DNA of 64,000 bases, taken from Cenococcum geophilum (lineage: Eukaryota). Positions 29,683-44,273 of this stretch are shown here, piece by piece. A program made the position numbers and the translations under genes. The notes under the pieces are model-generated. The model did not search any database and had not been told where the DNA came from. It was given only the letters and a program-made list of their open reading frames with translations. The first letter of the stretch is position 1; each line of letters opens with the position of its first letter. The stretch covers positions 3,658,001 through 3,722,000 of the forward strand of contig CP158635.1 of the NCBI GenBank assembly GCA_050273025.1. Reading direction: 5' to 3'.

Positions 29683-32181
29683 TATAATAAGCTATATATT
29701 AAATAAGAGGAATAGGAGGAACTTATATACCTTATATATAAGACGTACTTTATATATAAGGAGGATTTCTTAAGAGTACAGTTATATATTTAAAGGACTA
29801 TAGTCCCTACCCAGATAGTTCTTTTCTTTATAGTGAATCTTAGAATATAATTAGAGTTAATTTATTAGGCAATTACTTTACTAGTTATTATTACGTTGTT
29901 AACTTCTTATTTACCTATATACCTAGCTTATTAATAAGTTTACCGTAGTTCTTGCTATAAGGCTTTATTATATTAACCGCATATATATTATCTATTTAAA
30001 TAATATTTTAATCTACTTAGAAAATAAGGATTAATATAAGTAACACGTTTATAAAGTGCTAAAACGCTTAAATAATTAGGGCCTTTACGCTAAGGCGTTA
30101 AAGTATATCTTTAATACTAAGTAGGTCGAGTTTCTAGGTTATATTATAACGCCTATAGGTATAGTTATAGACCTAGTACGGGTATAGATAATCTAGGAGT
30201 GGCTAAAGCTAGAGAGCTACTAAGATATTTAAGTATTTTTAGGCTTTGCTAATTTCTATAGGCGCTTTATTTATAACTACTTAAATATTACTTAATACCT
30301 ATCTAACTATATTATAAAGGCTTTTTAAAACCTAACTTAAGGAGCAAAAAGCTTAAAGGCGGTAAGAAAGAAAATTAAGAAAGGACTAACTAAATAGTAT
30401 AAACCATGGTTATAGCCTAAAAAGTTTTAAAAGGCCTTTTAGAAACTTCGCGTAAAGTTTATAAAAGCTCTATTACTACGGCATTTTAACCTAAATTAGC
30501 TATTAATAATAATTACTAATATATTAAATTTTACCCTTATTAGTATCCTACTATAACCTAATAGGCATTTAGACGCTACCTAGCTCTACTAAAGACTAGT
30601 AGTATTTTATAGTAGAAAATTCTAGAGGCCTAAAGTTAGGTATTATACCCATAATAAGGAACTACTAGCTATAGTTAACTACTTTAAATAGTAGCGGTAT
30701 TACCTTAAGCACGCGAGCTATACTACTTTATAATTATAAAGGAGCTTATACCTTAATAAGCCAGATAGGCAAAGGAGCTTATATAATTTAACTTTAAGAT
30801 TAAATATAAGCTAGGGGAAAACAACCCTACTAATAGACTGTTATAATAGCTAGACTATACTAAAGGCTTTAAAACGGGAGAAGGAAAACAGATAATAGAT
30901 ATCTTACTCTCTATATTATAGAACAAGCTCCGGGTATAGGATACTTAAGTACCTATAGCTCTATATATTAAGTCTTAGGCGGTATAAACCCTATTAGCTT
31001 TTACTAACGTTTTAGCTAGTACCTAGTTTATAGCTAATAAGAGTTTAAATATACCTAGATAGGACATCTTTAATGCATTCTTAGAACCTAGTAATATACT
31101 ATCTCTAATTATTAAGCTATCCCCTTAAACTAATAGCGAAGCTATAAAGCAATTAGAACTTAGAGCCCTATAATAACTAAAGGACTTTAACCTTATAGCG
31201 GCCTTCCTAATATATATATATTAAAGAGTTATAAGATCTATAGCACCACCTAATCTTATATTTAGAGTAGTATAAAATAAAATAGCTTTTACTTAGGAAC
31301 TATCTAAAAGGTTAATAAATCTTATCTATAAGGTATAATAGAGGGACGCTTTTTATACTATCTTTAATACGGAAGTAGACCGGAAACGTAATAAAAAGGA
31401 AGCTACTAGGTACTACTATTAGGAACTAGACCCAATAGGCCTACTATATAAAAGTAGTAAGGTTTAGGTGCTATAAGAAGCAAATCTATAACAGAAGATT
31501 CTTATAAAGAATTACAATCATCCTCTAGGCGGCCACTATGGTTAAGTAAAAATAGTAAAATTACTTTAGCGTAAATACTATTAGCTAAGGCTTAAGCAGG
31601 AAGTAAAGGAGTATATTAGCTATTATAAGAGGTGTTAAGTATATAAGATCCGTAGGTATAAGCTATAGGGTTTACTTAAATTAATTCCCCCTACTAGTAA
31701 GCTATAGTAATATTACGCTATAAACTTTATTACAAATCTTCCGCTATCTAAAGATAGCTAAGGATAAATATATAATTTAGTCCTTATACTTATTAATAGG
31801 TTTTTTAAGTACGTCTAATACCTTCTTATTAATAAGACGATTAATATATAAGCGCTCGCCAGCCTAATTAAGGAGAAATACTTTCTTAAAGTAGATTAGC
31901 CGCACTCTATTATTACTAATAGGGGCAGCGTCTTTATAAGCTAGTACTAGTCGGATTTATGCTTTTATTTAAAGATAGACCACTATTATAGTATAGCTTT
32001 CTATTTATAAATAGATGGGTAAACAGAACGCTAGAACTAGGAACTAGAGTTTTACCTATAAATATATTTAAACTACTAGCAAGACAATTAGTGTAAGCTA
32101 CTTCCGTACGTAAAGTATGCTTACAATTTAAAGTAATATATATTATATAAGTATATACTAATCTAGATTGCCTATAGCGTC

Positions 32182-32373: not shown

Positions 32374-34629
32374 GCGTCTAATTATTTAGGTTTAATAGTA
32401 TACCTAATAATTACTAGCTAAGGCCGCATAATTAGTTATAGGATCCTACTAGGAAGTCTAAAAACATTTACTAAAGAGTATAAGGATACCTCTAGGAATA
32501 GAAGGAGTAATAAAAGTATGTAAAGTAGAGCCTATAGGATACCTAAAAGTAGTAAAGACTCTAGTATAACCGCAAGCACTAAAATAAGCATTTTGGAGTA
32601 GGCGATAAGGTTCTATTACGTTTAGCGAATATTAAAACCTATTAACTATTAAAAAAGCTTAATATAAGATACCTAGGTCCCTTCTAAATTAAGAAATAAA
32701 TTAATAAATTAGCCTACTGTCTCTAGCTACCCCTATCTATAGCCTATATATATCTAGTGTTTTATATAAACCTACTAGAGCTATAATATAAACTACTATT
32801 AGAAAAGAACTTTCGTCTAGGCCTAATTAAATACCCTAAGGTGGTAAGTAAGCGGTATAAGGTTAAAGCTATACTACGCTATAAGTCTGTTAAGAATAAG
32901 CTTTAATTTAAAGTTAAATAGCTAGGCTAGCCTACTAAGGACTCTATATAGAAACTAGAGGATTACCTCAATTATTATAAAAATATTTTAAAAGAATATT
33001 AGAACTAAGGTCCACAATCTACGAATTATAAAAAGCGCTCTAATACTATAGCATTATCGCAACCTATAAAGAAAGCTTATGAAAAGAGTAAATAGGTTAA
33101 ATCGGATATAAAATAAATAGGCTTTGGAAACTATAGAAATAGGGCTACGGCCTAAGGTAGAATAGGTCCTTAGCCTTTTTATATATATAGCATAGAGTTA
33201 ATAGGGCATTTTACTAGAATTGTATTTCTATTTATTGATCTATACTAGGAATATTATTGTTAGGGCTTTTAAGCCCTTTCTAAAAGCCTTTTAAGCCCTT
33301 TCTAAGTACCTAATTAAGGTCTTTAATTGCTACTATATATAAGAATAAATCCCAAATACCTAATCTAAAAAGCCACTATGCCTTATCCTTAGAAGTAGGA
33401 TTAGTATCTATTGGCCCTTTAAGAGATAGCTAATAAGAATAATATCTAGACCCCTTAGTAGGGGTATAGGTAGGTATAAAAATAGGAGTAAGGTAATAAG
33501 GTATAGCTAGAGCAGAGACTCTTAAACGCTTAACACTAATATTAGGTCTAAACTAATACTACTAAAGCTCTTATAGTGTAAGCTTATAGTTAATAAAGGT
33601 ATGCTTAAGCCTAAAATAAATAAAGATATTAGCTAGCTAGTATAATCTAGAACTACTAAAACCTTACTATAGTAACCGTTAGTTACCTATCTACTAGGTA
33701 CCTAAATAGTAACCTACCTAATAACGCATTATATTATACTCTTTTAAAACTTAACGCGTATACGTAAACTTCTTCCTATAGTAGATAGCAACCTTCTTCT
33801 TATTACCCCTATTTTTTACCCTATCCTTAATATACTAACCTTACTCTTATATTAGGCGTTACTAGCTAGCTTACTAGGAATTATAGGTAGTATAAATAGC
33901 TATAGCATAGTCTTAAATTCGGCTAAGTTATTTAATATTTATACTAGAATAAGAGAGAGCCCAGGCAATATAGTAGTTAAGGATATTAAAGGAATGTTGC
34001 TACTTAAGCCTAGGCTATTAAAGCTTAAAGTTAGTAATAGAAATCTATTAAGAATAGAAAAGCTTACCTTAACGCAACTGCCGCTTTTAGTACGTATGCA
34101 TATAACGAAGCCTTATAGTAGGAACTACGGTGAACTTGTTAATAGGCTGGGTATATAGGTATAGAATAGTCAACAACGTAAATATAACTGGTAGAGTGGT
34201 TACCTAATAAATTAACTCTAATTATATTCTAAGATTTATTATAAGGAGAGAAGAACTATCTAGGTAGGGACTGTGGTCCTTTAAATATATAACCGTACTT
34301 CTAAGAAATCCTCCTTATACGTAAAGTACGTCTTATATATAAGGTACGTAAGTTCCTCTTATTCCTTTTATTTAATACGTAGTATATTATATAACCTTAG
34401 TTACTATTCCTTATTATATAGTTCTATTAGCTCTATCTTAAACCGTGCCTTAATTAACTAACTAGCTGCTTCTAACTCCTCTCTTAGTAGTTATAATATT
34501 ATATTTAAAGCGTTTATAACACTATCTCCCTTCTTCCTATCTTCGTCCTTAAAGACGCTTAATATCTTTAGGTTGTTTACTAGAGGTATAATATCTATCT
34601 AATTAATTTAGTTAATATTGTTGCTTATT

Positions 34630-35281
34630 ATACCTAAAGCTTCTTCTTCTTTATACGCCTAACGTTATACTTATACCGTTACTATAATATTATTACTCGG
34701 TAAGATTATACTATCTCTATATTCTTATTATACAAAAAAAGGGTTAGTTTATATTACGTTAGCAAGTCTATCTTCTTAATAACCGTTTTTTTATTTAGAG
34801 TGCACTAAAGCAAATATTTATTTGTCCTATAATATTCGCTCTACCTCTAATACTAAATATACGCGACCTATTACTCTCAATAGTCGTTTAGTTCCCTAAT
34901 TAATTTATCTTAGGGTCTTATATTTAATTTATTGCTACTTATCTTAATAGCGAGTTATCTTAAGCTCTTATTAAGTTAAAACGTTTTTATAATGCGGAAT
35001 AAAAGGCCCTAGATACTTATATCGCGGTATCTACTTAATTACTCCGTCTTAAGAAGGGTTATAAAAAGGTCCGTTTTAAAGAGTAAAAATTTATAAAATA
35101 AGGTTTATAGAAACTTAGTAATAAAAAAATAAGTTTTCTTTTAACTAAGAAGGAAATAGATCTAAGTAGTTCGGCAACTGCTCTTCTTAGGTCCCCCTTA
35201 GGTAATTTATTTTTTAGTAATTTATTTTTATTAATACTACCTAACCTAATCTCTTCTAATACTCCTATACCTTTTTTATAG
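34630..35281 (+). pseudogene. Antisense accessory ORF of Gypsy D: Zn2Cys6-like cluster plus coiled coil, one intron
   Basis: Codons TAT/TAT/TAT/TAT/TGC/TAT at 34,720, 34,729, 34,750, 34,792, 34,801, 34,828 give C-x2-C-x6-C-x13-C-x2-C-x8-C after TGT>TAT reversal; putative intron 34,859-34,913; downstream helical frame ...ELS*ALIKLKR...LLRLKKG. Confidence 0.65.
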
Positions 35282-36646
35282 CGTTTTTTAAATTTTATAG
35301 TAGCTTCTAGGTAGTCTTATTATAGCCTATCCACTTAACCTTATACTATATTTTATTGTTAATATCCTTATAACTAATTATCTTTAAAACTTACTATTTA
35401 TCTTCCTTTTATCCTCTATATATGTCTGCCTTATAAACTAGTGGCTTAATATTTCTATATACTAGCTTTAGTATCGCAATATACTATATAGGGTAGATCT
35501 TTATTTTAGTTAGTAGGTTTAACTTAAATATAACTAGTGAAATTCTTTATATAATTTTAAAAGGTCCTAGTCTAATATAGTTTAATTTCTTACTTAGTCG
35601 TTAACTCTTAAAATTTTTATATAGTAGCTATACTTTATCTCCCTCTTTAAGATCTAGTCCCTTAAATCTCTTAGTATTATAGTACTTTTTTATTCTTTTT
35701 TATACTCTTTTTACTAATTTTATAAGGTCTATATAAAGATTTATTAATATCTTTATTCTTTTTTTAGCTATACTACTTATTTTCTTTACTTATTATAGTA
35801 ATAATAATATTCTTAACTTATATCTATAATTTGCCTTAAATAGTAATATGCCTATTTCTTCTTATAGTATTGCATTATATATAAACTATATAACTAGTAA
35901 TAGTAATACCTAATTATTCTATGCATAATTAATATAATATCTTAGATACTATTCTAGCGTCTAATTTAATCTTTTTATTTAACTATCTGTCTGCGGATAA
36001 TATATAGTAAAAGTTACTACTCTGACTCCTTATTCCACTAAGAATACCTTTTAGAATACTGCTATAAATCTTAAATCTCTGTCTAATATAATCTTGCTTA
36101 ATACTTTATATCTTATAAATACTTCTTTAATATAAATTCTAGCGATATCTTCCGCTAAAATTTCTTTTATGCATGCTATAAAATAGCCCTATTTAGTTAA
36201 CTTATCTACTATTACTAAAATTACGTTATAATCTTATCCGGTAATAGGATCTCTTAACTTTAGTAACTTAATAATAAAGTCCTATAATATAACCTCCTAT
36301 AGTCTCTTTGGTATTTTAATAGGTTATAGCCCTCTATATAGCTTATACCTTATTAGTTTATTCCTTTAGTAATTTAAATACTCTTTTATTACTTTCCTTG
36401 CAATATTTTAGATTTCGTTAATAATATATTCTTCTTAAAGTCTTAACACTAAGCCTATTACTCTATTATGCCCTTAAGTTATTTCCTTATAGAAATCTTC
36501 TATAAAATACTTTACTATACTCTTTAGGATATACTTTACTTCTTAATTTTTATATATATCTATCTATAGATCTTCTAGCTATACTTTTAGAATTCTTTAT
36601 ACCTAAAAGCTTTCTAGTATCTTATAGACTCTTTCTAGTTTATTAT

Positions 36647-37866
36647 TGTCACAGTACGTGCGGACTGTCAAGGTACGATGTACGAGGTGACTGTATATCA
36701 TTGACAAACGATATCATGTGAGGATCTATGTAGGAGGTGAGGTGGTATATATACACGTCGCTCAGGGGTTAGGTCCGTGCTCATGCATACGCGTAGCCAT
36801 AACAACGCGTCAGGTTAGTGCCGTGATAGTACATCCCTCCCTAACAAGGCGAGCTCCTGTGAGCCAAGTAACGGCAGTAAAAACATAGAGGTAAAAAAAA
36901 TAGACTATATATCCTCATCCTTCTAGTCCTTAAAGGTTCTCGTCCTTCTAGTCCTTAAAGGTCCTCGTTCTTACAGTCCTTAGACCCTCCTACCTATATC
37001 CCTACTACATCGCTCTCCGCTAGTGCTCGTCTTAAGCACTAAATAAAGCTAAAGGCGAAGGGGTAAAATAGGGGAGACGAAAAAAAATGTAACCGCGGGG
37101 CGTATTGCGGATATTAACTCTTAAAAGGCTCAGGGGTTACGGAGATCGAGGTTATTGCGTAGACTTAAAAGGCTTAGAGTGCGGAGATCGAGGTTAAAAC
37201 GTAGATTCTTGTTACGGTAAACTTATAGTATCTATGCGGATTCGAAGACAGAGATAGAGATAGAGACGAGATTGTAACCCATAGTCTTATACTGTAATCA
37301 AGACACAAGGACATAGCCCGTAGGGTGTCTCCCTACAGCCGGCTTTAGAAACTCGGGACGTGAAGCAGAAGCATGGCTAGATACGGAGACTTAGAGACTA
37401 AGAAGAGGAACTATAGCCCGCAGGGTGTCTCCCTGCTGCTGGCCTAGGAAACTTAGAGACTAAGAAGAGAAACTATAGCCCGTAGGGTGTCTCCCTACTA
37501 CTAGCTTAGAAACTCAAAGAGGAGACGGAGAGGTCGGCTCAAGAATTCGGATAGATTCGACAGAGATTTTACTGGGTCGGCATTGTCGTATGGGGGTAAG
37601 AATCCCGCCTGGGGTAGGGTAGCTTTGGAAACGTGGCTTTGGAAACGAGGCCCTACCAGGGGCGTATAAGATGACACGACATACTGTCACAGTACGTGCG
37701 GACTGTCAAGGTACGATGTACGAGGTGACTGTATATCATTGACAAACGATGTCGTGTGAGGATCTATGTAGGAGGTGAGGTGGTATATATACACGTCGCT
37801 CAGGGGTTAGGTCCGTGCTCATGCATACGCGTAGCCATAACAACGCGTCAGGTCAGTGCCGTGACA
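36647..37866 (-). mobile_element. Non-autonomous mini LTR retroelement (TRIM-like), 1,220 bp
   Basis: 182-bp LTRs 36,647-36,828 and 37,685-37,866; TSD ATTAT; minus-strand PPT (AGGGAGGGA) next to 36,829; 856-bp non-coding interior with short tandem duplications. Confidence 0.93.
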
Positions 37867-42700: not shown

Positions 42701-44273
42701 ACTATACCTTATAGTTAGTAGTCGTTATACTGTACTCCTATACTTCCGTAAGGTAAGGCTTAAACTACTTAAGTGCCCTTCTTATTAAGAACAATCCTAT
42801 ATAAGTAACTTAATCTATAGGCGTTCCTAGCTTTACTTCTTCTTACATAACCTTAAAGTGCATTTATATAAGGAATCCCTTAAGTTTTAACTTCTTCCCT
42901 AAGAATTGCTTAATTAAGGGTAACTTAACCTTAGCCGCTCCAATCCTATTAATCCTTTCTTTAAGTATCCTATTATTGTCTATTAATTAATTAACCATTT
43001 TCTATAGCTATTTAACAGTAACTAGTTACAAGTTAGTATTTACTATACTAGTATTATTACCTAATCCTAAGGTAGTCGCCGCTATAAACGCCGTTATAGC
43101 TACTGCTTTTAGTAGTATGTTATTTAACTTCTTTTACTATAACCTTAGTAGTAAATATATAACGAAGCCTTATAGTAGGAACTACGGTAAACTTATTAAT
43201 AGGCTAGGTATATAGGTATAGAATAGTTAATAATATAAATATAACTAATAGAGTGGTTGCCTAATAGATTAACTCTAATTATATTCTAAGATTTACTATA
43301 AGAAGAGAAGAACTATCTAGGTAGGGACTGTAGTCCTTTAAATACACAACCGTACTCCTAAGAAATCCTCCTTATACGTAAAGTACGTCTTATATATAAG
43401 GTATGTAAGTTCCTCTTATTTCTCTTGTTTAATATATAGCACGTTATATAACCTTAGTTACTATTCCTCGTTATATAGTTCTATCGGCTCTATCCTAAAC
43501 CATGCCTTAATTAACCAACTAGCTGCTTCCAACTCCTCTCCTAGTAGTCGCAACATTGTATTTAAAGCGTTTGTAATAATGCATTAATTATAAGGACTAA
43601 AGGTATTAGATCTAACGTAGTGCGTCTTATTATAAGCCTCTAGAATCCTATTATTAGATTTTTAGTCTTTTAAAGATATATAAGCAAAATTATTTAGGTA
43701 AAACTAGCACTAGTTATAAGTTAGCGGAGGTTAAGGTTCTATATATAAAGGTAGGGCTAAGATACGCTATAGAATCTACTTAAAAGAGTAGTCAGTAGAA
43801 GAATAAAGAGGCATATTAAATTATTAATGGAAAAAAAGAAAATCTTAATAATATATTAAAGATACGTCTAAAATTGGACGAAGGTTAATAATGGGAAAGT
43901 AAGGTATTAGGGAAAAGGAGCAGCTTAATAAGTAAAGATGTCCTTATACTTTACTATTTAATACCCTTTTAATAAATAGCCGTAACCTTACTAATATAAC
44001 TCCATTATAATAGCGCTATTTAAAAGAAAGGAAACATGTATATAAGTTATTTAACTATTACTTCCTTATAAAAACTAACTATGCGGCCAGGGAAAGGTAA
44101 TTAAGACGTTAATTAAATACGTATATAGGTTTAATTATACCTAAAATAATACTATAGTATTAAAGATTAATATTATAGACGTTTTTAATAATTATATAAT
44201 AGCTATAGTTGCTATTATAAAGTGTCCCTATTTACTAGGTAGTAGAGCTACACTAAATATATAGTATAGGACT

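Follow-up and report, generated by a model that had tools for sequence, protein, structure and literature searches.

A RIP-destroyed relic of a probable antisense accessory gene in a Ty3/Gypsy retrotransposon of Cenococcum geophilum

We have analysed a window of 64,000 nucleotides of the Cenococcum geophilum genome (assembly GCA_050273025.1, contig CP158635.1, positions 3,658,001 to 3,722,000 of the forward strand; all positions below are counted from the first letter of the window). Positions 34630 to 35281 very likely represent the copy, destroyed by RIP, of a genuine Ty3/Gypsy accessory gene, which is encoded opposite gag-pol and lies between the end of the chromodomain and the polypurine tract (PPT). 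The copy in the window is a dead relic (pseudogene) and makes no protein, and the practical result for the window is its annotation as a pseudogene relic within a RIP-degraded element. A sequence-only reading of this DNA had proposed a genuine third gene antisense to pol, and this proposal is borne out by comparison of copies, by intact relatives and by signals of selection.

The GC content is 0.24-0.45 across approximately 29-50 kb of the window, which is an AT-rich block of repeats with RIP-type mutations. Within this block, a 420-nt direct repeat with 90% identity was found at 34100..34519 and 43157..43576, both members being placed on the minus strand. The minus strand of the element thus delimited, element D, has the Pfam domains RVT_1, RNase H and SH3_Tf2-1 (Tf2-type SH3 of integrase), all located upstream of a chromodomain-like motif on the same strand; this motif was recognized by eye in a minus frame at 35250..35390 and marks the chromodomain-coding 3' end of pol. 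Because of the LTR repeat, the minus-strand pol domains and the chromodomain-like motif, element D is assigned on sequence features to the Ty3/Gypsy chromoviruses, encoded on the minus strand, with the left repeat as its 3' LTR and the right repeat as its 5' LTR. The outer LTR end was located by other copies of the element, since the alignments of 55 of the 80 copies begin in the bin 34100-34199 (median start 34101). A spacer of 110 nt (34520..34629) separates the LTR from the start codon of the antisense gene, and its first 29 nt or so, a plus-strand pyrimidine run from 34520, are the polypurine tract of element D when read on the minus strand.

Several other structures were noted in and around element D. 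An insertion at 36644-37864 is nested in the element and interrupts its pol; its ends are 183-nt direct repeats (36644-36826 and 37682-37864, 98% identity), it has a 62-nt tandem pair at 37385-37508, and it is much richer in GC (about 0.45) than the RIP-mutated DNA around it. Since the alignments of 65 of the 80 other copies stop at about 36637, this insertion is particular to the window copy. A truncated inverted LTR fragment at 29683-29973 shows 86-87% identity to both LTRs of element D and has no adjoining internal region, and 39350-39721 matches its own reverse complement (96% over 374 nt), forming a long palindrome in the gag-pol part of the element.

The antisense gene is read on the plus strand and has two exons. 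Exon 1 (34630..34858) includes the start codon, the region of an N-terminal helix and the six-Cys module; it is followed by an intron of 55 nt in phase 1 (34859..34913) and by exon 2 (34914..35281), which includes the region of a long coiled-coil helix, a Ser/acidic tail, a conserved C-terminal motif and the stop codon TAG at 35279-81. The codon split at the junction is composed of T (34858) and GG (34914-15), and the frame of exon 2 runs from 34916. The letters are as described in the sequence-only reading. The exon 1 frame begins with ATA at 34630 in place of ATG, has three stops and keeps one true Cys (TGC 34801-03), with TAT codons at 34720, 34729, 34750, 34792 and 34828. At the intron, the donor GT has become AT (ATACGC at 34859), and the acceptor AG is intact in the TTAG that ends at 34913. 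Seven internal stops are found in exon 2, giving ten for the whole gene. Without splicing, the frame closes at a TAA (34897-99) that is not of RIP type, and this explains the many ORF calls of 84-89 residues in protein libraries.

Copies of the element family were located in metagenome contigs by the purine/pyrimidine pattern of 34729-34767, which is matched whatever the RIP state, and 120 loci were collected, 80 of them with 3-kb flanks. Public sequencing runs showed a very high copy number of the family in three organisms. Variable places in the run designated X1 fell into the classes T>C (80), A>G (72), C>T (59) and G>A (38), with at most 10 in any class of transversion; column by column in the 120 copies, the differences were likewise overwhelmingly RIP-type transitions, C to T and G to A. 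The element D family is therefore a RIP-mutated repeat, its copies differing almost only by transitions. Because a column-wise un-mutated view of such copies tends to remove stops, the argument below rests on natural sequences only.

In the natural copies, the six Cys sites have TGY in 45, 55, 31, 44, 105 and 57 of the 120 copies, respectively, and the other copies have TAY, except for two single odd codons (one Asn and one Arg). All six Cys are retained in three natural copies (L112, L083 and L012) of the 120. Neighbouring A positions outside RIP targets have G in 0-1 of 120 copies. The ATG at 34630 and the donor GT at 34859 are each kept in 26 of 120 copies, and 115 of 120 have the acceptor AG; all 119 complete copies have an intron of 55 nt. 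Six ancestral Cys with the proposed spacing and a 55-nt intron with a mutated GT donor, both of which had been read from the damaged letters of one copy, are thus recovered from other copies. In several contigs, a second copy of the accessory gene is found less than 3 kb from the first and in either orientation (L079, 4-369; L057, 4830-5460; L041, 1433-804), which suggests that elements in that genome are nested or arranged in tandem.

Intact relatives of the gene product were searched for in protein libraries. The search profile was built from 31 natural exon-1 copies chosen for at least four Cys, a choice that favours Cys in the profile, and a search of 1.84 billion representative proteins with it gave 180 matches at E<=1e-3, 83 of them at E<=1e-10. 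The matches inspected were mostly short unnamed ORF calls, which are RIP-mutated themselves, and the cluster names looked up for the relatives were "hypothetical protein" or none, with no accession attached. When Tyr was tolerated in place of Cys, the pattern was matched by 121 of the 186 collected proteins (profile matches included), and all pattern matches listed share C-x2-C-x6-C-x13-C-x2-C-x8-C, with the same x13 and x8 loops. Unmutated relatives were found by word-based searches starting from the best profile matches. None of the six Cys is missing from two of these, P0152 (152 aa) and P0170 (239 aa), which share 62% identity. In P0152, P0170, P0172, P0175, P0176 and P0178 the sequence AEW-SRV is continuous exactly across the predicted junction; P0171 is intact and runs on into the intron. 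When the intron-less relatives were compared with the genomic copies by tblastn, the matches fell into two parts, which differ in frame and are separated by about 50 nt. Since 119 of 119 complete genomic copies keep the intron, the intron-less contigs of these six relatives may be transcripts. The intact proteins also find the relic in the window by tblastn, P0171 at 34723-34866 (E 1.8e-8) and P0176 at 34916-35278 (E 2.6e-19).

Two lines of evidence address the question of whether the product was maintained as a protein. Differences in length are multiples of three in 56 of the 58 copies with a non-modal exon 1 and in 40 of the 48 with a non-modal exon 2. For substitutions, only transversions were used, which RIP cannot generate, and six subfamilies were compared. 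At codon positions 3, 1 and 2, the transversion differences number 12, 8 and 2 in exon 1 and 28, 15 and 10 in exon 2 (pooled 40, 23 and 12; chi-square 15.9), and the eight in the intron are unbiased. By frame arithmetic, codon position 3 of the antisense gene faces position 2 of the pol frame; because of this opposition, the bias belongs to the antisense gene and not to pol. Because of the multiple-of-three length differences and the codon-position bias (third over first over second), the comparison of sequences shows past selection on the antisense gene product at the protein level.

Three explanations that dispense with such a gene were considered. One of them sees no gene at all, only a motif that arises by chance when Tyr is read as Cys in AT-rich DNA mutated by RIP. 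In its favour, the C/Y-tolerant Zn2Cys6-like spacing occurs four times in the six frames of the window, three of these within 29-44 kb, and the raw translation of the window copy (P0001) has no Pfam family and gave no match in a word-based comparison with longer proteins, the latter two results being due to RIP damage. The six-Cys motif in the window alone is thus close to chance, and it is the comparison of copies that makes the gene real: the occurrence of TGY at each of the six sites in about a quarter, and up to half or more, of the 120 copies, intact relatives with six Cys, the tblastn match of a relative to the window itself at E 2.6e-19, and the codon-related patterns of length and substitution described above all contradict a chance origin, which we regard as refuted and as having practically no likelihood left. 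An ordinary host gene, or a recent capture within this one element, has equally little to recommend it. No point in support of it was found. Of the 80 copies with flanks, 69 align collinearly with the window across the LTR and the gene and on into pol, and the alignments mostly stop where the LTR ends on its outer side, which is the pattern that separate insertions would give. This collinearity refutes a host gene or recent capture for the element D family, and it shows that the position between chromodomain and PPT is constant. In addition, the read-through ORFs of distant relatives (P0171, P0128, P0045 and others) all enter a Ser/Pro-rich stretch upstream of the start. The stretch can be read as the antisense of the PPT, which suggests, at the level of sequence, the same position of the gene in other families.

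The third of these explanations holds that the region is conserved for reasons in cis or at the RNA level, such as the 3' UTR of the element, signals flanking the PPT or a regulatory antisense RNA, and that the protein is incidental. Antisense RNAs do regulate other retrotransposons, as in Ty1, and this precedent lends the idea some weight. The length of the 110-nt spacer beside the PPT is kept in 116 of 120 copies, and no transversion-variable site was found in it (34520-34629) among the six subfamilies; the spacer is the most conserved part of the region, more so than the exons, and its conservation exceeds the need of a polypurine tract alone. Against this explanation, the substitution bias keeps to the plus-strand frame and, where the gene overlaps pol, differs from the expectation for the pol frame; the multiple-of-three length differences are confined to exons; and the ORFs are intact and conserved in relatives that are only 62% identical. 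We therefore regard conservation of the whole region in cis or as RNA as very unlikely, and return to the accessory gene. Beyond the PPT, the spacer may be the 5' UTR, promoter or leader of this antisense gene, or else a signal for reverse transcription.

The 3' end of pol and the end of exon 2 are arranged tail to tail, and the two probably overlap. In the un-mutated view, the minus-strand pol frame remains open beyond the chromodomain and across the final 130 nt or so of exon 2 (35152-35281); the overlap is visible only in this column-wise view, which tends to open frames. If the genes overlap, pol could account for part of the conserved motif at the C-terminus of the antisense protein.

In one RNA run (X21), 38 reads were found at 34517-34555, 35040-35085 and 35182-35400, all 80-95% alike to the window and mostly partial. 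The first mate was nearly always on the minus strand, and most reads continue into unlike, GC-richer sequence. No splice joint was seen among these 38 divergent, mostly partial reads. Less mutated relatives seem to be transcribed from one strand, and which strand this is depends on the type of library.

The structure of the protein was predicted with AlphaFold2 using the intact relative P0152. The model has a helix at residues 13-27, short helices at 35-40 and 58-67, one starting at each C-x2-C, and a long helix at 77-151 (about 75 residues) with a pLDDT of 95-99. The Cys region had a pLDDT of 49-67 in two runs, one with P0152 and the other with residues 1-94 and 42 sequences. In a homodimer test with zinc included, which does not use an alignment and is calibrated for microbes, the score was 0.42 against 0.22 for the best control; of the proteins with a known structure, 21 of 30 that were solved as pairs and none of 23 that were solved as single chains attain the mark adopted in this test. 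The homodimer runs agree in at least 69% of contacts with a partner pLDDT of at least 75, and the predicted contacts (94-133, 97-136 and 115-115) correspond to antiparallel packing. A dimerising coiled coil after the Cys cluster is thus predicted by the models, in accordance with the helical, self-pairing second half claimed earlier. Foldseek gave no match in the PDB for a query that is a low-confidence model in the Cys region, and a wide VIA-align search with this low-confidence model gave only generic helices (Z<=4.0, residues 52-94), with no Gal4-family chain listed.

The family to which the six-Cys module belongs is a separate question, and here the sequence-only reading, which had likened the module to the fungal Zn2Cys6 DNA-binding cluster, did not find support. 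The Zn2Cys6 spacing defined in PROSITE is C-x2-C-x6-C-x5-12-C-x2-C-x6-8-C, and the central loop of 13 residues is one beyond its range of 5-12. Pfam Zn_clus (PF00172) was below its cut-off of 21 bits in every copy and relative scanned, the best being 16.9 bits (L012) and the intact relatives having 8.1-15.6 bits. At E<1, Zn_clus was found in 12 of 31 and 5 of 42 members; none of these matches reached the cut-off, and most cover only profile positions 17-36, the second half of the profile. A sequence search of the PDB with P0152 listed only PPR1 (E 0.56), with the first triad of our protein aligned to the second triad of PPR1, and a search with the profile listed only Zinc finger protein 24 (E 0.77). 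In the ESM Atlas, a cluster named "Zn(2)-C6 fungal-type domain-containing protein" (0.90, whole protein) was obtained, which we use as a lead only. A small factor with a zinc cluster and a coiled coil is a fair hypothesis on these sequences, and the Pfam scores below cut-off, together with the low pLDDT of the Cys-region models, leave membership in Zn2Cys6 unsupported.

In comparison with Gal4-type domains (PF00172; PPR1, PDB 1pyi), the modelled protein has similar features: two C-x2-C-x6/8-C triads, a short predicted helix at each C-x2-C, and a linker and dimerising helix after the cluster. It differs from them in the x13 central loop, in the hydrophobic loop after the third Cys (LVCVAIAAP-like), in having few basic residues in the cluster and in its Pfam score below cut-off, as well as in the low-confidence fold of the Cys region and the antiparallel predicted dimer. 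Gal4-type clusters are not known for such a hydrophobic loop after the third Cys, and the coil of Gal4-type proteins is parallel.

These differences lead to the main alternative, according to which the gene is real and its six-Cys module is not a DNA binder of the Gal4 type but a zinc module that distantly resembles DUF3716 and makes contact with proteins or RNA. Its partners would be, for example, Gag, integrase, or host factors of chromatin or silencing, and the coiled coil would serve as a scaffold. DUF3716 (PF12511) was below its cut-off of 22 bits (L065 15.6, P0171 15.4 and P0152 residues 1-94 10.8 bits), but the weak matches cover practically the whole profile, positions 4-59 (L065) and 3-59 (P0171) of 59. 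Among the ESM Atlas clusters nearest to residues 1-80 is one with DUF3716 in 28% of its members (0.78), again as a lead only. The hydrophobic loop between Cys, the scarcity of basic residues and the antiparallel predicted dimer also speak for this alternative. DUF3716 is, like the module, a fungal Cys-containing domain of about 60 residues that is linked to a transposon: according to the part of the source available to us, REP9-1 and REP9-2, two genes of a class II transposon in Zymoseptoria tritici, contain it (PMC8232023). On the other side, REP9 is a DNA transposon, DUF3716 matches at E<1 were found in only 2 of 31 and 2 of 42 members and always below the cut-off, Zn_clus matches more members, and DUF3716 itself has no known function. 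We regard a DUF3716-like module of this kind as quite possible, although somewhat doubtful.

For the accessory gene as we propose it, the following scheme is considered. In working copies, the gene would be read away from the 3' LTR, starting 110 nt inside it, and removal of the 55-nt intron would give a protein of about 200 residues. Being antisense in the genomic RNA, the intron would persist through retrotransposition. The protein would consist of a short N-terminal helix, a six-Cys module of fixed spacing, a long helix by which two chains pair, and a Ser/acidic tail ending in a conserved hydrophobic-acidic motif. The six-Cys module probably binds zinc, and the protein may act in the nucleus and regulate the element in trans. 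The sequence-only reading had taken it for an LTR-driven DNA-binding protein and a candidate transactivator or anti-silencing factor, a role that would be one form of such regulation. We tentatively suggest that it could be a nucleic-acid-binding regulator of the element's own transcription, while recognizing that this function is less than probable. The broader proposal, that many ascomycete Gypsy/chromovirus lineages encode a zinc-cluster, coiled-coil factor that binds the LTR or chromatin, switches transcription or silencing and is hidden in antisense with an intron, is unlikely at present.

If this broader proposal is true, the factor would be a regulator borne by a retrotransposon, comparable in its logic to the accessory transactivators of retroviruses. 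Should the protein prove to regulate by binding DNA, fungal Gypsy elements would possess a transcription factor of their own, and this would bear on how silencing is escaped or set up in the repeat-rich, effector-bearing compartments of genomes. With its constant six-Cys module, its helix for dimerisation and its conserved intron, the gene family offers concrete protein domains that can be tested.

To our knowledge, extra genes of LTR retrotransposons have rarely been characterised, and those in antisense are all without known function. The closest known system is brtn, which Zhao and colleagues reportedly described in Virology in 2011 (417:248) as an additional antisense gene of the Boty-like Ty3/Gypsy elements of Botrytis cinerea and Sclerotinia. 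In the parts of four further papers available to us, brtn is an antisense gene between pol and the 3' LTR of ascomycete Gypsy elements (PMC8365987, PMC7264820, PMC4227169 and PMC5987419), and a Monilinia transcript is similar to both a truncated Pol and BRTN (PMC5987419), which would fit a tail-to-tail layout. Our search of the literature for antisense genes of fungal Gypsy elements found brtn and gave no description of six Cys or a coiled coil; in the portion of one survey at hand (PMC3248453), neither "antisense" nor "zinc" is mentioned. In plants, as far as the excerpt of PMC7264820 goes, Gypsy elements such as maize Grande, rice RIRE2 and Silene Retand also have antisense ORFs between pol and the 3' LTR, which are conserved within families and have no known function. 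These ORFs share the position and orientation of the element D gene, as described there, but they belong to another kingdom, have no known likeness in sequence, and are not described in that excerpt as a Cys cluster with a coiled coil. The antisense gene of element D has the placement of brtn, lying on the opposite strand between the end of pol and the PPT and 3' LTR. Like brtn, compared here by layout and not by sequence on the parts of the sources available, it is an extra gene opposite gag-pol, between a chromodomain-bearing pol and the 3' LTR. Genes of this kind are therefore already known from brtn (2011), and the protein family behind the element D gene is large, conserved and uncharacterised.
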